Below, one piece after another: positions 4,022 to 23,779 of a DNA stretch of 32,202 nt (positions are counted from its first letter, which is position 1; every line of letters starts with the position of its first letter). The DNA is from Candidatus Iainarchaeum sp. (GTDB lineage: Archaea > Iainarchaeota > Iainarchaeia > Iainarchaeales > GCA-2688035). The stretch covers positions 1 to 32,202 of the forward strand of contig JAFCCZ010000002.1 of the NCBI GenBank assembly GCA_017609945.1, in the 5' to 3' direction. The notes below the pieces were generated by a model that was not told the DNA's origin, searched no databases, and saw only the letters and a list, made by a program, of their open reading frames with translations. Position numbers and translations under genes: made by a program.

Positions 4022-5044
4022 ATGGCGGGCACGGAACAGCTTCAGTTTGCGCAAAAGTTCCCTTTCTCGGAAACTGCCAGGAAAATATTGCGCGAGATTA
4101 ATCCAAGCATTGAGCACATTCCGGAGGAAATCCTCAACCGCGCAGCAGTTATGATTTCGCACGCTTCAAAGGGCAAGCCCTACAATATAAGCATAAAATC
4201 CACTGAGATGCTTGAGCAGGAAATTGCCGCCTTTCCTGTTGCCAAAATTCTTGTTTCACTGATGAAGGACAAGTTCCTCTTCAAAAGCTTTGCCTCAATG
4301 GTTGCAAAGTCAACCTTTTTGTACCTTGAAAAATCCCCGAACCGAAAACAGCTGTCCCTTGACCTCGCTGAAGAGCTTGGCCTGGATGTTTCGGTTGTCA
4401 GCGAAAAGGGCTCTTTTGTTGAGATGCACTTGCCGCAGTTTCTTGGGATAAGATTCAACGACCCCGCACTCAAGCTTGTCAACCAGAAGCTCTCAAACGG
4501 AAAGGTTAAGCTCAACATAAACACCTTCTGCAGGTTTGTTTCGGAAAAAGTTTTTGTGATTGTGCACGAAAGCCTTCCGGTTAAAACAGCGGGTCTGCCC
4601 AACTTTTACAAGACCGTTGCAAGGCAGCTCTCGCAGAAGATTAAGGGCTCGCAGTTAAGGGACTTTAACTTCAAGGTGGAGGGCAGCCTTAACCCAAACG
4701 CTTTTCCGCCTTGCCTTGCATCGCTCTACCAGAAACAGCTTGCTGGAGAAAGCCTTCCGCACATGGCAAGATTTTTCCTTGCCTCTTTCCTCAACGCGGT
4801 TGGCATGCCCCAAAGGCAAATTCTTGAAGCATTCAAGAAGTCGCCGAACTACGACGAAAAAATTGCAAGCTACCAGGTCAAAAGAATTACCGAGCAAAAT
4901 TATTCCCCGGCAAGCTGTGAAAAAATCAAGACCTACGGTCTTTGCACTGACACAGATTGCAGGGTAAAGCACCCCATGACCTATTACCACCGGGCACTGA
5001 GAAACCTGCGCCAGCAAAACAAAAAGCCGGTAAAGAAAGAATAA
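4022..5044 (+). CDS. priL: DNA primase large (regulatory) subunit PriL
   Basis: 340 aa. C-terminal Fe-S cysteine cluster (PPCL..., SPASCEKIKTYGLCTDTDCRVKHP) plus synteny with PriS, GINS and PCNA. Confidence 0.75.
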   Translation: MAGTEQLQFAQKFPFSETARKILREINPSIEHIPEEILNRAAVMISHASKGKPYNISIKSTEMLEQEIAAFPVAKILVSLMKDKFLFKSFASMVAKSTFLYLEKSPNRKQLSLDLAEELGLDVSVVSEKGSFVEMHLPQFLGIRFNDPALKLVNQKLSNGKVKLNINTFCRFVSEKVFVIVHESLPVKTAGLPNFYKTVARQLSQKIKGSQLRDFNFKVEGSLNPNAFPPCLASLYQKQLAGESLPHMARFFLASFLNAVGMPQRQILEAFKKSPNYDEKIASYQVKRITEQNYSPASCEKIKTYGLCTDTDCRVKHPMTYYHRALRNLRQQNKKPVKKE

Positions 5045-5082
5045 TATACTACTATGCGGAATAATTTAACGAGGTGGTTTTA

Positions 5083-5322
5083 TTGATTGGCGAAACAGCC
5101 CACGCGTTAAATGCAATGCTTTTCCTGATCGTTTCCGCAGTAGTGCTGGTTATTCTTGGACTGGTTTTTTTCCTGATAAACCTTTGGATAATCGCGTACT
5201 CGGCAGAGCTTTTGTTCAACGCAAAGATTTTTTCAGCAATGCCTGCGTCAGAATACGTTGTCTTGAGCGCGTCCATACTGAGCGCGGCATCAATGATTGG
5301 CTCAAAGCACGCGAGGAAGTGA
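5083..5322 (+). CDS. small hydrophobic membrane protein (2-3 TM), unknown function
   Basis: GAGGTG (5071-5076) lies 6 nt upstream of an in-frame TTG at 5083. The sequence is strongly hydrophobic and is followed by a hairpin plus T6. I recognise no family. Confidence 0.35.
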   Translation: MIGETAHALNAMLFLIVSAVVLVILGLVFFLINLWIIAYSAELLFNAKIFSAMPASEYVVLSASILSAASMIGSKHARK

Positions 5323-5348
5323 GTTAAAATTTTTAACTCCCACTTTTT
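5321..5348 (+). terminator. perfect 9+1+9 palindrome GAGTTAAAATTTTTAACTC followed by a T6 run
   Basis: Read directly from the sequence. It overlaps the TGA of the small ORF and ends the priL transcription unit. Confidence 0.5.
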
Positions 5349-5363
5349 TCGCGCTGTGGAACA

Positions 5364-5371
5364 TTTAAATA
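5364..5371 (+). promoter_or_regulatory. consensus archaeal TATA box TTTAAATA for the basic repeat protein gene
   Basis: TTTAAATA lies about 70 nt upstream of ATG 5439. GGAGGT (5423-5428) precedes the ATG by 10 nt. Confidence 0.5.
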
Positions 5372-5438
5372 CTACCTTCAGTTAAATAATTTCAATATAA
5401 AATTATTTTTTTAAAAAAATTTGGAGGTTGCATTTAAG

Positions 5439-5810
5439 ATGGCAACAAAAAAGAAAACAAGGAAGCGCAAGACCGTAAGAAAGAGAAAGCCTGTTAAGCG
5501 AAAGGCTAAGAGGAAGGCTGCGAAGCGCAAAACTGCAAGGAAGAGAAAGCCTGTTAAGCGAAAGGCTAAGAAGAAGGCTGCGAAGCGCAAGACCGTAAGA
5601 AAGAGAAAGCCTGTTAAGCGAAAGGCTAAGAGGAAGGCTGCGAAGCGCAAAACTGCAAGGAAGAGAAAGCCTGTTAAGCGAAAGGCTAAGAGGAAGGCTG
5701 CGAAGCGCAAAACTGCAAGGAAGAGAAAGCCTGTTAAGCGAAAGGCTAAGAGAAAGCCGGCCAAGAAGAAGGCTAAAAAGAGAACTACCCGAAAGAAAAA
5801 GAAGAGATAA
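5439..5810 (+). CDS. extremely basic K/R-rich tandem-repeat protein (123 aa), candidate nucleic-acid/chromatin-binding protein
   Basis: It has its own TATA box, SD and ATG. A 20-aa unit KRKT(V/A)RKRKPVKRKAKRKAA occurs about 5 times. There are no acidic or aromatic residues. T-rich terminator tracts follow the gene. Confidence 0.6.
   Translation: MATKKKTRKRKTVRKRKPVKRKAKRKAAKRKTARKRKPVKRKAKKKAAKRKTVRKRKPVKRKAKRKAAKRKTARKRKPVKRKAKRKAAKRKTARKRKPVKRKAKRKPAKKKAKKRTTRKKKKR
5461..5752 (+). repeat. 60-bp tandem repeat, about 4.9 copies, in two alternating variants (A B A B B)
   Basis: Units start at 5461, 5521, 5581, 5641 and 5701. Units 1 and 3 differ at 1 nt, as do units 2 and 4. The repeats are in frame with the basic protein. 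Confidence 0.95.
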
Positions 5811-8695: not shown

Positions 8696-9472
8696 ATGGC
8701 TACAAACATTGTTTTCTTGAAGAAACCAAGCTTTAAGAACGCTGTTCTTTTTACCGGGCTCCCGGGCATTGGCCTTGTTGGAAAAATCTCAGTGGATTAC
8801 CTGCTTAAGCAGTTTAAGGCAGAGAAGATTGCGCTTGTTTTCTCCGACAGCTTTCCGCCAAGCGTCCACACCAAGGCCGCGCTAATCAACCTTATCCACG
8901 ACGAACTTTACGCTTTTAGTTTTGAGGGCAAGCACTATATTTTCCTTGCAGGGCCTGTTCAGCCGTCGCTTGATTTTAGGGTTGGGTCCGCAATGGAGCA
9001 CTATGAGTTTGCTTCAAAGGTAGTTGAGGTTGCCAAAAAGATTGGCGTGAAGAAGGTCTTTACTCTTGCCGGAATAAATGTCGGCGGCAAGAGGCTCGAA
9101 AAGGAACCAGGAGTCATTGTGGCTGCTACAACCAAGGAGCTTGTGGAATGGTTTAAGGAAGTTGGCGCCAAGGCCGACAAGAAAGAGGGCCTCATTTCCG
9201 GCGCGGCCGGCCTTATTTTGGGGATTGCAAAGGAGAATGGTTTGGAGGGCGCCTGCCTTATGGGCGAAACAAACGCCGAATTGGTTTACGGGGACCACGG
9301 CGCCGCAAAAAAGCTTGTTGAGCTGCTTGTGAAAAGGTTTGGGTTCAAGGTTGACATGCGTGGAATTGAAAAGGAAAGCAAGGAAATAGAGTCCGCTTTC
9401 CAGCAGCTTGCGCAGCAGCTTGAGCAGATTGAGACTGATGATTCTGATGACAGCCCGTCTTACGTGCGCTAA
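8696..9472 (+). CDS. PAC2-family (proteasome assembly chaperone-like, COG1938) protein
   Basis: FTGLPGIGLVGKISVDYL N-terminal motif, 258 aa, acidic C-terminal tail. It commonly follows aIF2alpha/Nop10 in archaea. Confidence 0.65.
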   Translation: MATNIVFLKKPSFKNAVLFTGLPGIGLVGKISVDYLLKQFKAEKIALVFSDSFPPSVHTKAALINLIHDELYAFSFEGKHYIFLAGPVQPSLDFRVGSAMEHYEFASKVVEVAKKIGVKKVFTLAGINVGGKRLEKEPGVIVAATTKELVEWFKEVGAKADKKEGLISGAAGLILGIAKENGLEGACLMGETNAELVYGDHGAAKKLVELLVKRFGFKVDMRGIEKESKEIESAFQQLAQQLEQIETDDSDDSPSYVR

Positions 9473-10737
9473 AATTCCTTCAGGGTTTTTTGGCCCGCAC
9501 TGCTGTCCTGTTTCATCTCTTCCGCAATCTCTTTTCCCCTTTTCTCAAACTCTTCCCGGGAATCACAGATTACCGGCCTGCCGTAGTTTCCGCCGCCGCC
9601 CGGAATATAGTGGACCCAGCCTTTCCTGAACGCAATCACTTTGCCTGCAACCTCCTTGTTTACCGCCGCGAGCTCTTCCTCAGGGGCTTCAACCAAAATC
9701 CTTATTTCGTTTCCACACCTGTCAATGAATTCCCGCCAGAGGCCCTGGACCCTTACCGCGTTTATGTTCTTTACCTTTTTTGCGATCTGGATTATTTCGG
9801 CAAGCGGGACAGAGTGCATGTACTCCGGCCTGAATTCGGGGTGCTCAACCCTGCCGTCTGAAAGCATTTCAATCCTGTCCTTTACCCCTCTTTTGATTGA
9901 GCCCCTGCACTTTGGGCAGCGCCAGTTCAAATTCTTCGCTTCGCCGATTGAAAACTTTGCGTAACAGGAGTTGCAGGCGGTCAAGTGGTACTTGCCCTCG
10001 CGCGGGTCCAGTCCAACATTGAGCTTTATCCGCTTCCCATCTTTTTCCTCAATTGCCTTCCTCAGCTCCCTGAAATTTGGCTTGGCCATCTCAATGCGGG
10101 TAAACTCCCGCCCAATCCTATATGGCCACGGGCTGTGGGAATCGGAGCAGGTTAGAAACTGCAGCTTCCTGTTCTCGGGAATCATGTCGGCAAAGTCTGT
10201 GTCAGCGCTCAGCCCGAGCTCAATAAAGCTCACCTTTTCCCCCATTGCCCCGTACATTTCCCTAACCGAGTCAAAGTGTGCGTAAACTGAAAAGTAGGGG
10301 GTAAAAGCGTGCGCCGGTCCGATGATCCCTCCGGCGTCCATCACCTTTCCCGCAATTTCCTCAGGGCTAAGCCTTATCACCGGCCGGCCGCAGCCCCAGG
10401 AGTCAAACACAGCCTTTCCCTCCAGGCTTTTCTTCAGATTCTCCGCGGAGGCAAAGTCCGGCAAAAAAACCAGGTGGTGCACGCGCCTGTTGCACTGAAC
10501 CTCAACCTGTGGGATAAAATTAACCTGTTCCTTCCTGTCGGCAAAAACCCCGTTTTCAGTTTCAACAATGTTTTCCTTCAGGTGCTTGAACCAGGTTCCC
10601 TGCAGCAAGTCGGCTGTTCCGCAAACGTCAAGGCCCTTCAGCCTGCTTTGCTCCGCAATAATTGGAATAAGCATATTCTTGCTTACGCCGGCGCTGTAAG
10701 GGCCGTGAAAGTGCAGATCGCAGTTGAATTCAGCCAT
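9469..10737 (-). CDS. endoQ: endonuclease Q (EndoQ, TIGR00375 PHP-domain nuclease acting on deaminated bases)
   Basis: DLHFHGPYS, RVHHLVFLP, GPAHAFTPY, ELGLSADTD, SDSHSP, GLDPREGKYHLTAC and the Zn finger CPKCRGSIKRGV are collinear with Pyrococcus EndoQ. ATG at 10737 is preferred over GTG at 10746. The C-terminus is QKTLKEF. Confidence 0.8.
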   Translation of the reverse strand: MAEFNCDLHFHGPYSAGVSKNMLIPIIAEQSRLKGLDVCGTADLLQGTWFKHLKENIVETENGVFADRKEQVNFIPQVEVQCNRRVHHLVFLPDFASAENLKKSLEGKAVFDSWGCGRPVIRLSPEEIAGKVMDAGGIIGPAHAFTPYFSVYAHFDSVREMYGAMGEKVSFIELGLSADTDFADMIPENRKLQFLTCSDSHSPWPYRIGREFTRIEMAKPNFRELRKAIEEKDGKRIKLNVGLDPREGKYHLTACNSCYAKFSIGEAKNLNWRCPKCRGSIKRGVKDRIEMLSDGRVEHPEFRPEYMHSVPLAEIIQIAKKVKNINAVRVQGLWREFIDRCGNEIRILVEAPEEELAAVNKEVAGKVIAFRKGWVHYIPGGGGNYGRPVICDSREEFEKRGKEIAEEMKQDSSAGQKTLKEF

Positions 10738-10746
10738 TGAAAACAC

Positions 10747-13131: not shown

Positions 13132-13767
13132 ATGAGCCGATTTAGCGAGGAGCAGAAGAGAATTGCAATTTTGCTTTTGCACGAGCCAAAGACTGCGGAA
13201 GAGTTAAACAAGCAGTTGGGGATTCCCTACACCAAGCTAATGGCTGAGCTGAAAAGCATGCTAAAGCTTGAGGTAATCACAAAAGAGGGCTACCCCACAA
13301 AGTACAGGCTAAAGGAGAATATTGCAAAAGAGGTCCAGAGACGGAAGGAAGTGGCTGAAGAGGACCTAAACGAGCTTAGATTGCGTGCTTTTGTTGAAAT
13401 GCAGGCAATTGAAGAGGATTTGCTCAAAAAGCAGTTGGGCAAGCTGAAGGAGGCCCTTGACAAGGAAAAGAACTTCACAATTTACTCTGTTGAGGAGGCA
13501 AAGCCAGTGAAGGACGATAAGTACTATTCTTCGTACCTTGACATAAATTTCTCGGTAAGGGACTTTCCCTCACTTGTAAGGTTTATGTTCTTTTACGGCC
13601 CAAGCTCAATTGAGGTAATAAAGCCGGCAAAAGTGGAGTTTTCCGCCCAGGACCTGCAGGACGGGCTTGTTGATTTGGCTGACATGGTCCAAAAGTATAC
13701 CAGTTATATAACAAAGATAATGAGCAAGGAAGACATTGAAAAGTTCCACCAGAACCTCTACAAGTAA
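13132..13767 (+). CDS. winged-helix DNA-binding protein with an uncharacterised C-terminal alpha/beta domain
   Basis: N-terminal ...KTAEELNKQLGIPYTKLMAELKSMLKLEVITKEGYPTKYRLKE looks like a wHTH. It is followed by a coiled-coil linker and a C-terminal domain I do not recognise. Confidence 0.5.
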   Translation: MSRFSEEQKRIAILLLHEPKTAEELNKQLGIPYTKLMAELKSMLKLEVITKEGYPTKYRLKENIAKEVQRRKEVAEEDLNELRLRAFVEMQAIEEDLLKKQLGKLKEALDKEKNFTIYSVEEAKPVKDDKYYSSYLDINFSVRDFPSLVRFMFFYGPSSIEVIKPAKVEFSAQDLQDGLVDLADMVQKYTSYITKIMSKEDIEKFHQNLYK

Positions 13768-13843
13768 ATAGTACAAAACTAGTTCGTCAATTGTTGATGT
13801 GATCTATTGCAAAAGACCAAAATTTTACCTTATCGGTCAAAAT

Positions 13844-13865
13844 AAGGCCTTTTAAGCCTTTTTTC
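13844..13865 (+). terminator. hairpin AAGGC-N7-GCCTT running into a T-run
   Basis: Read directly. It lies downstream of the wHTH gene and upstream of the S-layer promoter. Confidence 0.35.
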
Positions 13866-13876
13866 CCACCGAAAAG

Positions 13877-13886
13877 TATTTAAATA
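13877..13886 (+). promoter_or_regulatory. palindromic consensus TATA box TATTTAAATA with purine-rich BRE-like CGAAAAG upstream; S-layer gene promoter
   Basis: Read directly. It predicts a transcript start near 13910 and a 5' UTR of about 95 nt. Confidence 0.6.
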
Positions 13887-13913
13887 CCCTGTTGTTATAA
13901 GGTTACGGGTCTA

Positions 13914-13957
13914 GCTATGTGTGCCTTCAGTGATATAGTGTCACTTTAAGGCGTAGC
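13914..13957 (+). promoter_or_regulatory. extended stem-loop at the predicted 5' end of the S-layer mRNA
   Basis: Inner stem AGTGATA/TGTCACT (7 bp including one G-U, loop TAG; 13929-13945). It is flanked by CCTT/AAGG (13924-27 / 13948-51) and GCTA/TAGC (13914-17 / 13954-57). Confidence 0.35.
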
Positions 13958-14006
13958 CATATCTGGGCTTATTTTTCATGTGAAAAATTGTGAGGTGAAA
14001 CACTAC

Positions 14007-17000
14007 ATGAAAGGATTGAGTGTAAAGAAGCTAGCTGCTGTTGCACTTGGCGGAGCCTTAATTGGTTCAGCTTTGGCACCAGTAGTTTCAGCGGCAGTGA
14101 CAAGCAATGTCGATACACTACAGAAGTCGGATGTTGTTAGCGCAACAACCGGTGACCCAGTGGTTAACATTGCTGTCGGCTCAATGGGTGCAGCTCCTTC
14201 AGACTTTGTCTGGGCGGGCAATATTGCTGCAAAAGTTGCGCAGCTTGCAACCGTTGAGAGTAACGTTACAGTGACTGGCGGTGATGGCGGAACTCCTGAT
14301 CTTACTGGCGTAACAGTTGATGTTACAGTCGGCGGGGACGTGTCTTATGCTACAGAGAGCTCTAAGACGTATGAGGGGTCAAGCTATCCTTTGAAGTCAG
14401 ATCCAGGAGCGGGCAATGAGCTTGTTAAAGAGCTTAGCAGCGCCCAGCTTCCGTTTTTGACTAACGAAACGAGGACTTATCGATATGCAAGTGTCAGCTA
14501 TAGCATTGTTGTCAAGGAGAAAATCGGACTTAACGTCGACGCAAGAATGGACCTTATTGACAAGGATGTTGAGGACCTCATTGTCTATATGACAGGTGAG
14601 GGCGACTTCAACTATGTTCTTGATTTGGGCGATGGTATTCCGGTGTATAATACCTTGTCGGCTGCTACAGCGTTCACAGACGGCGATTCGGACAACATTC
14701 TTATTCCATTCCTTGGTGAGGAATTCACTGTGCAGTCAGTTGATTGTAACTCTACCACAGTGAAGCTGATTAAGGAATCCGACAAATCCACGTATTACGA
14801 AGGCGAGGAGTTTGTGGGTTTGGAAGGAAAGGGCAACTTCGACGGGGAAGAGCTCTCTGTTAAGGTTGACGCTGTGACCCAGGCTGGTGCCGCTACAACG
14901 ACCTATAACGTCAGGTATTTGCTGCTTGACAGCGAGGGCAACGAGATTGACAGGCAGAATCTTGGAACAGGAGTTTACCTGAACGACAGCTTTGTTGACA
15001 GTGAGGGCGAGTATGCGCTTGACACGGTTGTGTACATTTCAGATGTTGGCATTGAATCAACGACACAGACAGGTTATGTTACGGCAACTGTTGGAAAGAG
15101 CGTTGTGGACCTGAAGCACGGCGAGCAGTATCCATACGACAGCACTGATACGACATCATCCAACGACTATTGGAAGGCCAGTTTGACCATGAGCGGGTCG
15201 GATACCAATCCGGCTACAAGGACAATGACGAATATAACGATCAAGAACGCGGTTACGAAGTGGAATTCGGTTAACCAGCTTCTTCCTGCAACTGGTTCGT
15301 TGACAGACCCTGACGCCACCGGAGAGGCTTTGTTCCTTCAAGGAAACGACGACGGTGACTTGGGCTATAACTTTGTCAAGTTCAAGTTTGACGGACTGAA
15401 GATTGACCAGTCAACTACAACGATCAAGATTGGAAAGGGCGCTTGTGAGACCTCTGAGGGCCAGGAAGCAGGCTGTGTAATTTACACAGACAACTCTGGT
15501 GTTGAGAGGGAAGTGCCGTTCTACATCAAGCTCGAGCTGACCACAGGACCAAGCGACGAAGGAACGTTCATGATTGACAACCAAACGTTCTACTTCAGAT
15601 GCGACACAACAGACACAAACATGAGCTTCGTTGACGGAGAGTACCTCAATGGTTCAACGTTTGACACAAACTACAGTACAGCCGCAGAATTTGCGGTCAT
15701 AACTGACTGGAATACTGCAGGTTGGGACTTGAACGGTGACTCCCCCTGCGTAGAGGCCGGCGGTACTTGTTCAGCAGATATCAACGGTTTGTTCGTTGAC
15801 CTGAACATGGACTATACAATAGGAATCGCTAACGTTGCAGTGGGGGTTGACGGAAACTGCCAGTTTGCGTACGAGAGTTTCAACAACTACACAGAGGGAG
15901 ACGGCACAATCCTGAAGGCAAACGGCCAGACTCCTAAATACGAAACAATGTTCTACGACGACGACAACACAAACATCGACAAAGCCTGGGGTTTCGCGCC
16001 ATTGGAGATAACAAATGATTCTCTTGAGGACACATACATGTACACAATGTTTGTGAACGACGAGACATCATACAAGGACGTATATCTCCTGTTGCACGGA
16101 TCCACTGACTTCAGCAACGAGTTTTCAACGGTAGACGTTGACTTCAACGGAACAAACTACAGCACCGGAACAATATATGTTCAGAGTTCCGGAGGCCCGT
16201 ACTGGGGACACACCACTACAGCAGAGACAGGCTATAGGGTTGATGTGGATTCGAACTTCTACGTTCCAGACCACACGGCTTTGGGTTTCGACCCGACAGA
16301 CACTACGTATTTCGTGGCTACGTTTGGCATCGACACAAACAACACAGGATTCGACGTATACGCATACATTGGCACAGAGGACAACGAGCTGATCACTTTG
16401 CCGAATTCGGACATGACAGGCTACCCGACCCAGGTGGATATTAACCGCTTGACCGGTTGGAATTTGAGGTCTGACAGCCCGGAGAATCAGTCGGCTGCGA
16501 CTTGGCTGGACTACGGCACCAAGGTAGAGATTATTACTACCGATGCTGGTGAGGACTATGCCAAGTTTACTATCCCAGAGTCACAGATCTACCTGCAGTT
16601 TGCTGTTCTCGGTAAAGGCACCGTAACGACAGCGGCCGGTGGAACCGCTTTCACAGGGCTTGCCGAGGGCGAGTCAGGTGAAGAGGGATCCACCAAGGTA
16701 ACAGTAGACGCGATCGCAGGCGGCGTTTGCCCGGCAGCGGGCGGCGCAGTTGCAGATCCAGCAGTGGTACAGGAAATTGTCCCAGTAGGTCAATTGGTAT
16801 TCCTCGATACACCCGAACCAGCAGGCGCTCACATTATTGTGGGTGGTTGGTTAGTCAACAAGCTGGTTTCATCTTCTACCTCTCTTGGTGAGGGCGAAGG
16901 CACGCTAGGCGAGGCATTGACCACTAGTGGAGACAGAGTTGTACAGTTGCTCGGTAACGGCGACATTATTGTTGCTGGTTACGCTGCTGCTGACACAAAG

Positions 17001-17045
17001 CTGGCTGCAAACGACCTGATTGACGCACTCGACGCGTTGAGCTAA
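14007..17045 (+). CDS. S-layer (surface layer) glycoprotein, 1012 aa
   Basis: GAGGTGA lies 8 nt before ATG 14007. Signal peptide MKGLSVKKLAAVALGGALIGSALAPVVSAA. Acidic, T/S/N/D-rich, with many N-x-S/T sequons. The C-terminal IIVGGWLVNKL motif is typical of archaeal S-layer C-terminal domains. Strong promoter and terminator. Confidence 0.8.
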   Translation: MKGLSVKKLAAVALGGALIGSALAPVVSAAVTSNVDTLQKSDVVSATTGDPVVNIAVGSMGAAPSDFVWAGNIAAKVAQLATVESNVTVTGGDGGTPDLTGVTVDVTVGGDVSYATESSKTYEGSSYPLKSDPGAGNELVKELSSAQLPFLTNETRTYRYASVSYSIVVKEKIGLNVDARMDLIDKDVEDLIVYMTGEGDFNYVLDLGDGIPVYNTLSAATAFTDGDSDNILIPFLGEEFTVQSVDCNSTTVKLIKESDKSTYYEGEEFVGLEGKGNFDGEELSVKVDAVTQAGAATTTYNVRYLLLDSEGNEIDRQNLGTGVYLNDSFVDSEGEYALDTVVYISDVGIESTTQTGYVTATVGKSVVDLKHGEQYPYDSTDTTSSNDYWKASLTMSGSDTNPATRTMTNITIKNAVTKWNSVNQLLPATGSLTDPDATGEALFLQGNDDGDLGYNFVKFKFDGLKIDQSTTTIKIGKGACETSEGQEAGCVIYTDNSGVEREVPFYIKLELTTGPSDEGTFMIDNQTFYFRCDTTDTNMSFVDGEYLNGSTFDTNYSTAAEFAVITDWNTAGWDLNGDSPCVEAGGTCSADINGLFVDLNMDYTIGIANVAVGVDGNCQFAYESFNNYTEGDGTILKANGQTPKYETMFYDDDNTNIDKAWGFAPLEITNDSLEDTYMYTMFVNDETSYKDVYLLLHGSTDFSNEFSTVDVDFNGTNYSTGTIYVQSSGGPYWGHTTTAETGYRVDVDSNFYVPDHTALGFDPTDTTYFVATFGIDTNNTGFDVYAYIGTEDNELITLPNSDMTGYPTQVDINRLTGWNLRSDSPENQSAATWLDYGTKVEIITTDAGEDYAKFTIPESQIYLQFAVLGKGTVTTAAGGTAFTGLAEGESGEEGSTKVTVDAIAGGVCPAAGGAVADPAVVQEIVPVGQLVFLDTPEPAGAHIIVGGWLVNKLVSSSTSLGEGEGTLGEALTTSGDRVVQLLGNGDIIVAGYAAADTKLAANDLIDALDALS

Positions 17046-21016: not shown

Positions 21017-23764
21017 TTACCTGAACCTTAGAATCGCACCAATTCCTCCAAATCCCTTCAGGAACTGTTCGCCCTCTGAGGTGTCTGTGCTGATGATTTT
21101 TGTTTCAGTGCCGGTGCTCATTGCCTTTTCAACTATCCAGTCGGTGTAGTCAACCTCTTCCATGAGCTCCAGAGCAGAATCGCATTTCTTGCACTTGTGC
21201 TTGCTTGGCTCAAAGCCAGTTGGCTCCTTGACAACAATTTCTTCCTCCGTATCGCAGGAATTGCACTTGAACTTGTAAACCATCCACTCAATTTCCTCAC
21301 TCAAAAGCAGGGTTTCAACCTTTCCGACCAAGAGGGCTTCCTCCACCTCCTGCTGCCCGTACGCTGCAAGTCCGCCTGGCTTCACAACCTCTCCCATGAA
21401 ATTATTCACAACGTTTTTTTCCTTTGTGATTTCCGCATCCCTCAAAAGTTCACTGCTTTTGTTTACTGCTTCCCTTATTCCACTTTCGTCAGTGTAGGAT
21501 GTGTCAATTGTTCCAAGAACCTTTTCCTTTAGCCGGTGATCCAAACGGTCCTGGTTCATAAAGTAATTTTTTGTTATTCCCGGCCCTGCGATAAGCAGGC
21601 CCTTTAGCTTGTCTCCGTATGGCACAAAAATCTCCGTTAGCTTGGTGCCAATCCTTTTGTAGAAATCGTTCACCGCGTCCTCGTGAAGCCTTTCAAACCT
21701 CTGAGCGGAGTTGTGGGAAACAATTCCGCCTGCAATAAAGTTTTGATTTTCAACGCTAATATCAACCATTTTTACAGAAGCTTTCTTTCTTGAAATACTG
21801 GCAATTTTTACTGGGAGGAGTTCTCTTTTAAGAACTGTTTCAAGTTCCTTAATCAAGCCCTCGTTTTTAGCAAATCCAATTACCGAATTTTTAAATGCCT
21901 GCTTGCTCATCATTCTTTCATTTCTGAAGAAGTTTGTTACCCTTGGAAAATCTGTTACCTTAAAGCCGTTCTTTTCTATTAGTTCTCTAATTTGCTTTCC
22001 AGAGGAAGAAATTTGCCTAACGCTGCTTTTGTTTCCAATCTTTGCAATCTCTTTTGAAAGCTGTTTGGATTTTTCAGTCGAGCTAAACCCAATTTTTTCT
22101 TTAAACAATTCAATTGACTTCTTTTCACTCAATTGGACTGTGAACCTAATCTTATTTGAATAGGGGTTTTTTCTGTTGTCATAACGATGAATTCCTGCAA
22201 GAATCCCAAACCTAAGCAGCGCCAACTGCACCTGCTTTACAAGTTTTTCATTATTCATTCCTAACGCCACTTTTTTGTGGCTCACATAGCCTTCAGCATC
22301 AAACAGTCCACGCAGGAAGCCAGCCAAGATTCTGTCAGGCGATTTCAAAACCTTTTTTGGAATGGATTTACTGTTTAATTCCGGAAAATTTCCCCGCAAA
22401 TATCTTATGATAGCTTTACCATACACTCTTATTGTGAAATAATTCTTTGTTTTTCTAAAACGAACACTTGTGTTTGCGTTGAAAACTCTGGCGGCAAGTT
22501 TTTCATATTCGTTCGCAATTTCTTCTCTCTCTTCAAAAAAGCTCAGCCTTTCCTCTTCAAATGAGCCATCGCCGGCAAAGTATCCTATTAGCTGTGCAAG
22601 TTCCCAACCAATCTCTTTTGGGAGTCGAATCTCGCTATTTGGTTTGCAGTGTTTTTGAACAAACAGGTTAAAGTCTATTCCAAGGTGGTTGCAAATTTTT
22701 CCAAGTGTCCGGTTCCTCGGACAAAACTTCCCAAGTTCTAAAGCCGAAATGTTGGCTTGGCACAATCCTGCCTTTCCCGCCAGTTCTCTCTGAAACAGGC
22801 CCAGGGAAGTTCTTGCCTCTTTAAGCGCTCTTCTGCCCCTTTTAAGAACTGTGAATGAATTAAAATAATTGCTTTGCAGTTTTTGCGCAACCCCTTTAAC
22901 TCTAATTTTTTCTGGAATTAGAAGGAACTGCCCTTTCTCCAATTTCCCTGCGGTTTTTTCAGCTATTTTGCCGTGCTTCCAGCAGAACAGCGAGTGGTCT
23001 TTGGAGCAAGCGATTTCAAGCCTGGGCTCTTTAGTAATAATAGTGGCCGTTTCATTTTTCACAGTATTCCATTTGTCATTTATGAAGGAATCTTCAACCG
23101 AAAAACTGTAAAAATCGGCTGTCTTAACCCCGCTTGGGTTATGGCATTTTGAAATCTCAACGATGTTGCCATCACTAAGCTGAATTAGCGTGTTGGGAAC
23201 TAGGCATTGCCCGCCAGCCCTATGCTTCCCGCTTACTCCTGAGGTGAAGTGTCCGAGAATCTCATACTTTTTTCCAACAAGAATCGCAATTGTTGATTCC
23301 TTGTTGTCAATTGTGAGAATTCCAAAAATATCGGTTGGAGCAACCATTTCCTCAAGCGGGACAAGGTGAAATTCTGAATCGCACCAGTAAAGCTTTGTCT
23401 TAAGCTCTCTCGGGGGCTTTATTGTAAAAAGCCTTATATCACTTTTTCCCTCCTGCTCTGAAACGTTTCCCGAAAAAACCACCAGTCCTTTCTCAGGCAG
23501 CTTGAAGTTAATCTGCTTCAGGAAATTGTTCAGCTTCCTCAAACTGCCCTGCACATTCTTTCTCGTTGTAGGGCTCTTAATGTTGCTGCTCTGGCTGAGC
23601 TCTTCTGTTATTTGGGCCATGACGCTGCTCCTGTCTACCGCGGGCGGAAGGTAAAGGGAAATGAGTTCTGTTCCCCGGCCCTTGAACTGCTTCATTTTCT
23701 TCAGTTTTTTCTTGAAGAGGACTATCTCTGCCTCGTTTACCTCTTCCAAATGGCTGTTTTTCAT
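21017..23764 (-). CDS. prf1: peptide chain release factor aRF1, interrupted in frame by a 499-aa intein
   Basis: RGTELISLYLPP, NIKS, YWCDSEF (YxCxxxF), then HRAGGQ | intein | SAQRFERL. The exteins total about 416 aa, the normal aRF1 size. The C-terminal domain carries a zinc-ribbon mini-domain CNSC...CKKC. ATG at 23764. Confidence 0.9.
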   Translation of the reverse strand: MKNSHLEEVNEAEIVLFKKKLKKMKQFKGRGTELISLYLPPAVDRSSVMAQITEELSQSSNIKSPTTRKNVQGSLRKLNNFLKQINFKLPEKGLVVFSGNVSEQEGKSDIRLFTIKPPRELKTKLYWCDSEFHLVPLEEMVAPTDIFGILTIDNKESTIAILVGKKYEILGHFTSGVSGKHRAGGQCLVPNTLIQLSDGNIVEISKCHNPSGVKTADFYSFSVEDSFINDKWNTVKNETATIITKEPRLEIACSKDHSLFCWKHGKIAEKTAGKLEKGQFLLIPEKIRVKGVAQKLQSNYFNSFTVLKRGRRALKEARTSLGLFQRELAGKAGLCQANISALELGKFCPRNRTLGKICNHLGIDFNLFVQKHCKPNSEIRLPKEIGWELAQLIGYFAGDGSFEEERLSFFEEREEIANEYEKLAARVFNANTSVRFRKTKNYFTIRVYGKAIIRYLRGNFPELNSKSIPKKVLKSPDRILAGFLRGLFDAEGYVSHKKVALGMNNEKLVKQVQLALLRFGILAGIHRYDNRKNPYSNKIRFTVQLSEKKSIELFKEKIGFSSTEKSKQLSKEIAKIGNKSSVRQISSSGKQIRELIEKNGFKVTDFPRVTNFFRNERMMSKQAFKNSVIGFAKNEGLIKELETVLKRELLPVKIASISRKKASVKMVDISVENQNFIAGGIVSHNSAQRFERLHEDAVNDFYKRIGTKLTEIFVPYGDKLKGLLIAGPGITKNYFMNQDRLDHRLKEKVLGTIDTSYTDESGIREAVNKSSELLRDAEITKEKNVVNNFMGEVVKPGGLAAYGQQEVEEALLVGKVETLLLSEEIEWMVYKFKCNSCDTEEEIVVKEPTGFEPSKHKCKKCDSALELMEEVDYTDWIVEKAMSTGTETKIISTDTSEGEQFLKGFGGIGAILRFR
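21710..23206 (-). mobile_element. full-size intein with LAGLIDADG homing-endonuclease domain and an XRE-like HTH segment
   Basis: Starts CLVPNT (block A). SKDH (block B-like). LAQLIGYFAGDGSF and ILAGFLRGLFDAEGYV (two LAGLIDADG motifs). Ends FIAGGIVSHN, followed by the +1 Ser. I verified the junction codons on the minus strand: TGC at 23206-23204 and AAC at 21712-21710. Confidence 0.85.
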
Positions 23765-23779
23765 GTTGATCAACCCAAC

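Follow-up and report, generated by a model that had tools for sequence, protein, structure and literature searches.

The aRF1 locus

The window analysed here, a stretch of 32,202 nucleotides from Candidatus Iainarchaeum sp., carries on its minus strand the gene for the archaeal release factor aRF1, interrupted in frame by a 499-residue intein (Table 1). The open reading frame (21017..23773) gives 918 aa if read from an in-frame TTG at 23773, and the intein then spans residues 190-688, between the Gln of GGQ and the Ser of SAQRF. The ATG at 23764 is the likely start of the precursor, chosen because the N-termini of homologues match it; an AT-rich box, TTTATTTAAATA, lies immediately upstream of the start codons.

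The host gene is identified by the aRF1 profile TIGR03676 (455.2 bits, cut-off 234.7, NCBIfam search) and by the domains eRF1_1, eRF1_2 and eRF1_3, each of which exceeds its own cut-off in the precursor (Pfam/NCBIfam). The hallmark motifs SSNIKS, YWCDSEF and AGGQ are present, and GILRF is also kept in the exteins. The GGQ codons occupy 23207-23215, while the +1 Ser of SAQRF, the first residue of the C-extein, lies at 21707-21709; only once the intein is spliced out in silico do the two motifs join without a break. The resulting 416-aa extein is colinear with Halobacterium aRF1 (4af1, E 3e-83) and with human eRF1 (1dt9), and its alignment with 4af1 is gap-free across GGQSAQRF, bearing out the normal aRF1 that an earlier note on this DNA had expected from removal of the insert. 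That note had also placed the intein directly after the GGQ, with boundaries that prove correct to the base, and had seen no second aRF1 in the window, with which our tblastn search agrees. A scan of ten large ORFs of the window revealed no further inteins, and the only RNA element found in it was one tRNA-Cys.

Table 1. Features of the interrupted aRF1 gene. Positions are those of the window; aa numbers of the intein parts count from Cys1.
Feature	Position	Strand	Details and evidence
aRF1 precursor gene	21017..23764	minus	915 aa from ATG at 23764; stop 21017-21019; ORF list, TIGR03676 and eRF1_1/2/3
N-extein, 186 aa	23207..23764	minus	domain 1 (NIKS, YxCxxxF) and start of domain 2, to ...HRAGGQ
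Intein, 499 aa	21710..23206	minus	Cys1 (TGC, 23204-23206) to Asn499 (AAC); junctions, profiles, empty-site alleles, AF2 model
N-terminal HINT splicing region, aa 1-118	22853..23206	minus	beta-strands in model, block A Cys1, Pfam Intein_splicing
Block B, S68-K-D-H71	22994-23005	minus	S68 and H71 invariant in 58 sequences
XRE/Cro-C1-type HTH accessory domain, aa 121-186	22649..22846	minus	Pfam, model helices, family gaps
Two-motif LAGLIDADG homing-endonuclease domain, aa 197-390	22037..22618	minus	LAGLIDADG_3, 85.7 bits, two stretches
LAGLIDADG motif 1, aa 203-214	22565-22600	minus	LAQLIGYFAGDG; D213 (LAQLIGYFAGD213G)
LAGLIDADG motif 2, aa 294-306	22289-22327	minus	LAGFLRGLFDAEG; E305 (LAGFLRGLFDAE305G)
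Helical linker or second accessory region, aa 391-460	21827..22036	minus	helices 403-459, pLDDT >90
C-terminal HINT splicing region, aa 461-499	21710..21826	minus	block F D482, block G NFIAGGIVSHN
C-extein, 230 aa	21020..21709	minus	remainder of aRF1 domain 2, then domain 3 carrying its Zn-ribbon insert

Splicing elements

With the junctions marked by a slash, the precursor reads ...HRAGGQ/CLVPNTLIQ...GGIVSHN/SAQRFERL, and the insert has the parts of a class-1 intein: Cys1, an SxxH block B, D482 in block F, the terminal H498-N499 pair and a +1 Ser. The junction residues had been recognised in the earlier note, as had the Gln of GGQ as the -1 extein residue; profiles and homologues now agree, with GGQ/C...HN/S junctions (assigned by alignment-based splitting) in all 123 of 123 occupied homologues. 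The Pfam model Intein_splicing reaches 52.4 bits, above its cut-off of 35.8, the N-terminal intein model TIGR01445 stays below its cut-off (20.8 against 24.5 bits, NCBIfam), and the best NCBIfam match of the intein other than aRF1 is an intein-containing IF-2 model at 71 bits. Across 58 family sequences with a mean identity of ~47%, C1, S68, H71, D213, D482, F490, H498 and N499 are invariant. Block B carries Ser where Thr is more usual, and this Ser is kept throughout the aRF1-intein family. The helical stretch that follows the endonuclease, ahead of the C-terminal HINT half, contains a further conserved motif, VRQI...FPKV..FFRN.R.MSK.

The AlphaFold2 model of the intein is of high confidence (pLDDT 94.6, pTM 0.92), with the strands of the two HINT halves at aa 1-120 and 463-498 (pLDDT >90). 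Its top Foldseek matches are themselves inteins: TliVMA (7qss, E 7e-25, TM 0.65/0.74), PI-TkoII (2cw7, 4e-22) and PI-PfuI (1dq3).

Endonuclease and helix-turn-helix domains

The two LAGLIDADG motifs named in the earlier note are both present and lie within the LAGLIDADG_3 match. G212, D213, G214, D303, A304 and G306 do not vary in the same 58 sequences, where E305 reaches a conservation of at least 90%. The domain has a duplicated alpha-beta-beta-alpha-beta-beta-alpha fold and matches I-DmoI and I-Tsp061I with a TMt of 0.64-0.74 over ~190 columns (Foldseek).

Between the N-terminal HINT region and the endonuclease lies an XRE-type helix-turn-helix (HTH) domain, which the earlier note had overlooked. 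HTH_19 (34.2 bits) and HTH_3 (32.7 bits) both exceed their Pfam cut-offs at intein aa 127-184, the model places five helices at aa 122-186, and the sequence matches C.BclI (2b5a) and DBP48 (8tac). The module is cleanly missing from 13 otherwise homologous inteins of 431-435 aa.

The combination of HINT, an accessory DNA-binding domain and a two-motif LAGLIDADG endonuclease is shared with TliVMA and PI-TkoII, although these sit in other hosts (V-ATPase A and DNA polymerase, respectively) and have only 14-18% sequence identity to our intein. Unlike theirs, the accessory domain described here is recognisable from sequence as XRE-type HTH_3/HTH_19. PI-PfuI and PI-SceI (1vde) are likewise bifunctional splicing and LAGLIDADG endonuclease proteins; the former is the best PDB sequence match (E 2e-9, over the second LAGLIDADG half), and the whole-chain superposition of the latter is poor (rmsd ~25 Å). 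Their extra DNA-binding parts are the Stirrup domain in PI-PfuI and the DRR in PI-SceI, neither of which is known to be an XRE HTH. Archaeal homing-endonuclease inteins with an HTH-like accessory domain resembling HTH transcription regulators have been described (Beyer et al. 2022, PMC8966425).

Empty alleles in close relatives

The intein-free alleles that the earlier note had envisaged in sister genomes do exist. Three contigs (L001, L002 and L005) are syntenic with the window, collinear over up to ~8 kb at 83-84% nucleotide identity (blastn), and lack exactly the 1497 bp from 21710 to 23206, with alignments that break at 23208/21709. Occupied and empty genes were compared codon for codon after in-silico splicing, in addition to blastn. 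At the intein junction point, the empty site in L001 and L005 reads ...AGAGCCGGAGGGCAG directly followed by TCAGCGCAAAGGTTTGAA..., and the same site around GGAGGGCAG / TCAGCGCAA is a candidate endonuclease substrate, as is the empty site in L006. The junction codons are CAA followed by TCC or TCT in the three occupied alleles compared as DNA, and CAG followed by TCA in the nearest empty alleles. The empty allele L006 reads CAA-TCC, like the occupied ones, in a comparison of co-conversion tracts that rests on few alleles.

At the protein level, P0121 has the nearest extein (93% identity); it is intein-free and lies at the orthologous locus. Neighbour-joining (NJ) of the exteins places that of the window inside a clade with seven intein-free alleles, and every other sampled allele of its sub-clade is empty. 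The nearest occupied allele has 70% extein and only 63% intein identity, a distance at which the synonymous sites of the intein are saturated. This distance and the otherwise empty sub-clade set the window apart from the other DPANN aRF1 inteins, with which it shares host protein, GGQ/S insertion point and HINT-HTH-LAGLIDADG-HINT build. The intein looks like a comparatively recent gain in the lineage of the window. Its GC content (39.3%, against 46.3% in the exteins and 47.2% in the window) is the lowest of any segment of the window, which we count towards mobility, although it could mean a composition of its own and not recent arrival.

Distribution across DPANN archaea

At least 123 aRF1 protein clusters (90% identity) from DPANN MAGs, drawn from NCBI, JGI, ENA and Logan assemblies, carry an intein at the same GGQ/C site, a breadth that had escaped the earlier note. 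The occupied groups include 'Candidatus ainarchaeum sp.' (P0002-P0006), Diapherotrites (P0020-P0039), Aenigmarchaeota (P0066-P0089) and Woese-/Nanoarchaeota (P0102-P0120). Some of these proteins are already labelled "eRF1/intein/homing endonuclease" by the JGI pipeline, and the insertion is common in public DPANN metagenome data, to which the window adds a new member. The novelty that the earlier note had considered holds only in part: in the full-text articles searched we found no published description of an aRF1 intein, and those that matched dealt with genetic-code expansion and ARF GTPases.

Across 104 family members, the identities of the inteins do not follow those of their exteins. The exteins of P0071 and P0079 are 99.5% identical while their inteins share 74.6%; conversely, P0055 and P0098 have exteins of 36% and inteins of 56% identity. 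On the NJ tree of 252 taxa, at least 38 changes of occupancy are needed, against 84 expected if random; this count of gains and losses is only indicative, given a crude tree and a sample partly chosen for intein presence. Mini-inteins of the same lineage (135-144 aa) occupy the same GGQ site, and decayed alleles exist, as in P0017, where a ~30-aa deletion removes GGQ and intein block A.

A mobile element is recognised by an identical site that is occupied in some close relatives and empty in others, and by an element history that departs from that of the host gene. Both are seen here, the second within the limits of a biased sample and a crude tree. Together, the empty sites, the nested extein, the incongruence and the mini-inteins carry the signature of what would be an active homing cycle. 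We consider it very probable that the element is selfish, with gain, decay and loss ongoing across DPANN lineages.

Side by side with these alleles, some syntenic, intein-free aRF1 orthologues in related Iainarchaeota MAGs carry GGF (as in L008) or GGW (as in L010) instead of GGQ, on contigs of 457-522 kb; their exteins are ~66-72% identical to those of occupied alleles. These orthologues might be endonuclease-resistant target variants in an arms race between intein and aRF1, with the Gln side chain partly dispensable for release, a speculation that we regard as highly improbable. If true, the motif of translation termination that is conserved above all others would be changing because of a selfish element.

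Proposed mechanism

We infer splicing, endonuclease activity and the cleavage target; the anatomy, the conserved residues, the fold, the empty sites and the patchy, incongruent distribution are observed. The 915-aa precursor would be translated first, with a 57-kDa insert splitting the GGQ loop, and in this form it should not reach the peptidyl-transferase centre; the encoded aRF1 should therefore be inactive until spliced. At the Gln-Cys bond, Cys1 would then carry out an N-S acyl shift to a thioester, which the +1 Ser would attack, and Asn499 would cyclise with the help of His498, releasing the intein. A final O-N shift would yield contiguous GGQSAQRF and a normal 416-aa aRF1.

In the homing branch, the freed intein or the precursor would cut intein-free aRF1 alleles near the GGQ/S codons, and repair templated on the occupied allele would copy the intein into the cut allele. 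The HTH domain, by analogy with TliVMA, would supply extra DNA contacts and add to target binding or specificity.

Alternative explanations

The low GC of the insert and the metagenome-like character of the window might suggest that an unrelated endonuclease gene had been joined into aRF1 during assembly. Such a chimera would hardly have both ends in frame with textbook intein junctions, nor both flanks collinear with relatives, and the same architecture recurs in the at least 123 clusters from four assembly sources. Chance or assembly error is ruled out because the frame stays open over 1497 nt in DNA of 39% GC, because the intein ends match, to the base, the gap in three empty syntenic contigs, and because all occupied homologues have the same junctions; the chimera is effectively refuted. 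It is also extremely unlikely that the insertion is real and splicing-dead, with aRF1 inactivated and termination left to another copy elsewhere in the genome. Only 32 kb of that genome are visible and the decayed P0017 shows that such alleles arise, but here the splicing residues are all intact, the frame is open over 2745 nt, synteny marks the locus as the orthologous one for aRF1, and the exteins keep NIKS, YxCxxxF, GGQ and GILRF in addition to a 93% identity with the intein-free orthologue at the same locus.

A third alternative is a domesticated intein, whose splicing would respond to redox state, temperature or substrate and act as a post-translational switch on termination. An insertion in the catalytic loop makes the precursor probably inactive, so that splicing would gate activity, the GGQ-site allele is widespread in DPANN, and conditional splicing is documented in other archaeal inteins such as RadA, according to work cited in Novikova et al. 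(2016). However, relatives with the same synteny and 84% nucleotide identity do entirely without the intein, the window extein is nested among intein-free alleles, and intein and extein histories disagree. The endonuclease acids are conserved, as in a mobile element, whereas a switch needs none of them. Among the invariant and near-invariant columns there is no conserved second Cys for a redox trap with Cys1; the sole other conserved Cys, C172, is in the HTH domain. We thus hold regulation of this kind to be highly unlikely. The reading that we prefer, with a probability of about 0.9, is that of a canonical class-1 LAGLIDADG intein with an HTH accessory domain, inserted in the aRF1 of a member of the Iainarchaeota (Diapherotrites, DPANN) and taking part in a homing cycle.

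Significance

It is known that inteins occur in essential proteins, at the catalytic sites that vary least, and the present one leaves the general understanding of inteins unchanged. Its host site is the peptide-release GGQ loop of a core translation factor. Inteins in aIF2/IF-2 also occupy a conserved site in a core translation factor, but their host is a P-loop GTPase. Core translation components are a class said to hold few inteins, and the main text of the survey that says so does not mention aRF1 (Novikova et al. 2016, PMC4760082).

In practical terms the gain is moderate: a new extein context (-1 Gln after Gly-Gly, +1 Ser) together with a LAGLIDADG scaffold that bears an HTH domain and is likewise new. 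For the family, the occupied allele and its empty counterparts in the same gene order (~84% nucleotide identity) make a clean natural test system, while sister inteins, HTH-less forms and mini-inteins at one site span stages of the homing cycle. For the organism, a single aRF1 copy is usual in archaea, and it is a reasonable inference that, if this is the sole copy, all termination depends on splicing. Translation termination in a reduced-genome DPANN cell would then pass entirely through protein splicing.

An intein at the catalytic motif of aRF1

The archaeal class-I release factor (aRF1) gene is split at GGQ/S (the slash marks the splice junction) by an intein whose coordinates and sequence, as reported in an earlier note made from the sequence alone, are exact when the minus-strand ORF is translated. 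An ATG at codon 4 (23764) would give a 915-aa precursor, in agreement with the homologue N-termini and with the gene call in a public collection. Pfam detects eRF1_1, eRF1_2, eRF1_3, Intein_splicing and two LAGLIDADG_3 stretches on the precursor, together with a helix-turn-helix domain (HTH_3/HTH_19, intein residues 127-184) absent from the earlier note. The aRF1 model TIGR03676 of NCBIfam scores 455 bits (cut-off 235), while the intein portion matches NCBIfam models of intein-bearing proteins (IF-2, RNA polymerase A'', RNR, RFC and others). Removal of the intein in silico leaves the predicted 416 aa, colinear over its whole length with the aRF1 of Halobacterium (4af1, E 3e-83) and with human eRF1 (1dt9), the 4af1 alignment running ungapped through a contiguous GGQSAQRF.

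Features of the window and of fetched contigs L008 to L011
Feature	Location	Strand	Remarks
aRF1 precursor ORF	21017..23773	minus	918 aa from TTG
Intein CLVPNTLIQ...GGIVSHN	21710..23206	minus	499 aa; ORF positions 190-688; ...SGKHRAGGQ before, SAQRFERLHED after
Helical segment of intein	21827-22036	minus	intein residues 391-460
Intein junction	23207-23215 / 21701-21709		compared with L001 at ±15 nt
Large ORF	13980-17045	plus	1021 aa; no Pfam match at E<=1e-5
Large ORF	9469-10746	minus	425 aa; no Pfam match at E<=1e-5
Local GC minima	5001-5500; 13501-14000		GC 0.392, similar to the intein's
P0157 gene (GGF, codon TTC)	L008:8001-9251; L009:8001-9251
P0207 gene (GGW, codon TGG)	L010:3887-5119; L011:3577-4809

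The other genes of the window include both primase subunits, TruD and PPDK, and a single tRNA-Cys is its sole RNA family match. No further intein was found in ten large ORFs scanned and, in line with the earlier reading, no second aRF1 within the 32-kb window. Contig L008 encodes a 981-aa product, also without Pfam matches, at the position corresponding to a large window ORF, two genes past the LPG-synthase gene; the large ORF product may represent a conserved unknown protein of the window's lineage.

The first search returned 120 proteins, the 119 non-self matches all being aRF1 proteins of 767-921 aa. Combined with four mini-intein alleles that a second search added, this set gave 123 occupied alleles, which were split by alignment. 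The junctions described initially (Cys1, terminal His-Asn, +1 Ser) are shared by all 123, with GGQ/C at the N-terminal and HN/S at the C-terminal junction. Full-length inteins share a mean pairwise identity of about 47%, with Cys1, Ser68 and His71 (block B, SxxH), Asp482 (block F), His498 and Asn499 invariant or nearly so. The same holds for the ends of both LAGLIDADG motifs that had been noted (Gly212-Asp213-Gly214 and Asp303-Ala304-Glu305-Gly306). The window element is a class-1, LAGLIDADG-bearing archaeal intein with an accessory domain, showing all the testable defining features. In one occupied NCBI entry, P0017 (888 aa), a deletion of about 30 aa takes out GGQ and intein block A (…GHFSEAGNPAAVKSVDF…); either the allele has decayed and no longer splices, or the assembly or annotation is at fault.

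Predicted architecture and mechanism

The AlphaFold2 model of the intein (58-row alignment; pLDDT 94.6, pTM 0.92) combines a beta-rich splicing (HINT) domain formed by residues 1-120 and 463-498 with five bundled helices (122-186) and a duplicated alpha/beta endonuclease core (about 197-390), after which a further helical segment extends to about 460. Its best Foldseek matches in the PDB were the TliVMA intein (7qss, E 7e-25), PI-TkoII (2cw7) and PI-PfuI (1dq3), with PI-SceI and the free-standing I-DmoI next. A PDB sequence search was consistent with these and added XRE-type HTH proteins (C.BclI) for residues 116-186. In TliVMA and PI-TkoII, 'accessory domains' of HTH character modulate DNA cleavage (Beyer et al. 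2022, PMC8966425), so the HTH of the window intein is a known type of module, although here unusually recognisable by sequence. The helical segment that links the endonuclease core to the C-terminal splicing region is conserved (VRQI…G..IR.IIE…FPKV..FFRN.R.MSK) and confidently modelled, with no domain family assigned; it may act as a second accessory module for binding DNA.

Following established intein chemistry, splicing would proceed by an N-S acyl shift at Gln(-1)-Cys1, trans-esterification onto the +1 Ser, cyclisation of Asn499 and an O-N shift. Since the insert of 57 kDa occupies the domain 2 tip, from which GGQ has to reach into the peptidyl-transferase centre, the precursor is almost certainly inactive until spliced, and any modification of the GGQ glutamine would presumably come afterwards. 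From the conserved acids and the empty sites we infer a probable endonuclease activity and its target.

Empty sites and mobility

The closest relatives of the spliced extein are intein-free aRF1 proteins (cluster P0121, 93% identical; P0122-P0124, 81%). Two independent contigs, L001 (JGI) and L002 (Logan), encode P0121 and preserve the gene order PPDK, Dph2, amino-acid kinase and aRF1, then one further gene downstream (TruD in the window). By blastn, L001 and L005 (NCBI MAG Arabian11_MAG_21) are collinear with the window on both sides of the intein at 83-84% identity, the alignments stopping at 23208 and restarting at 21709, a gap that corresponds exactly to the intein. In a codon-by-codon comparison, the spliced gene and that of L001 are 85% identical and differ at 31 amino-acid positions. 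The nearest occupied alleles are only about 70% identical to the window in their exteins and 63% in their inteins, and the neighbour-joining extein tree places the window in an 8-taxon clade whose other members are all intein-free. The window intein is a divergent allele in a lineage otherwise empty. On this crude tree of a biased sample, occupancy changes at least 38 times over 252 taxa, against about 84 with shuffled labels, a figure that is indicative only.

Across the family, intein and extein identities are strongly incongruent, from pairs with 74.6% identical inteins and 99.5% identical exteins (P0071/P0079) or 68.5% and 97.6% (P0012/P0013) to the reverse, 56% and 36% (P0055/P0098). Thirteen alleles lack the HTH module alone, and four hold mini-inteins of the same lineage, 135-144 aa long, from which HTH and endonuclease are deleted. 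The intein is also the most AT-rich stretch of the window (GC 39.3%, against 46.3% in the exteins). Taken together, the empty sites, incongruence, HTH-less and mini-inteins, and AT-richness are what a homing cycle of invasion, spread, decay and loss is expected to leave behind.

At the junction, occupied alleles with available DNA (window, L003, L004) read CAA then TC(C/T), and the nearest empty alleles CAG then TCA. The junction flanks carry 7 synonymous differences from L001, an identity below the gene-wide 85%. These differences may be a co-conversion footprint, yet the empty L006 also reads CAA then TCC.

Distribution and related inteins

Public sequence data contain the aRF1-GGQ insertion in abundance. 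The relatives go by the names Candidatus Iainarchaeum, ainarchaeum or Diapherotrites, and the occupied family extends to Aenigmarchaeota, Woesearchaeota and Nanoarchaeota MAGs; JGI automatic annotation labels some entries 'eRF1/intein/homing endonuclease'. Full-text literature searches gave no published description of an aRF1-GGQ intein. Core translation components hold few inteins according to the main text of Novikova et al. 2016, which lists aIF2 among the hosts and not aRF1.

In an exhaustive representative search, the same intein family was found with the HTH in FttA/aCPSF1, dCMP deaminase and a DHH/GAN-type protein, and without it in a DHH/GAN-type protein and RadA. These other-host inteins (P0296, P0307, P0310, P0300, P0345, P0295, P0304) are 24-33% identical over the full 499 aa, which points to a pool of LAGLIDADG inteins with HTH modules spread across DPANN. 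Two aRF1 proteins retrieved with the intein as query, P0271 (1187 aa) and P0290 (1452 aa), carry the GGQ-site intein and a second one inside the stop-codon-recognition motif YxCxxxF (…YLYM/C…HN/CDDHYH…); both functional motifs of aRF1 are thus intein targets.

Intein-free aRF1 variants without the catalytic glutamine

GGQ has been called universal in a/eRF1 (Atkinson 2008, PMC2613156). In eight intein-free aRF1 clusters from Iainarchaeota-like MAGs, the glutamine is replaced, giving GGF (P0144, P0151, P0157, P0180) or GGW (P0207, P0217, P0386, P0387). The two with contigs fetched are orthologues by synteny: P0157 shares the full window order PPDK-Dph2-kinase-aRF1-TruD-GT4-LPG synthase, and P0207 the order Dph2-kinase-aRF1. 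Their TTC and TGG codons are seen in independent assemblies, with NIKS and YxCxxxF intact. In the neighbour-joining extein tree, GGW forms a clade of four (68-74% identity) and GGF has at least two origins. These orthologues merit separate attention.

As an insertion site, aRF1-GGQ is striking in its position, clean and textbook-like in its features and apparently unpublished; its mechanism is ordinary, and databases already contain it commonly.
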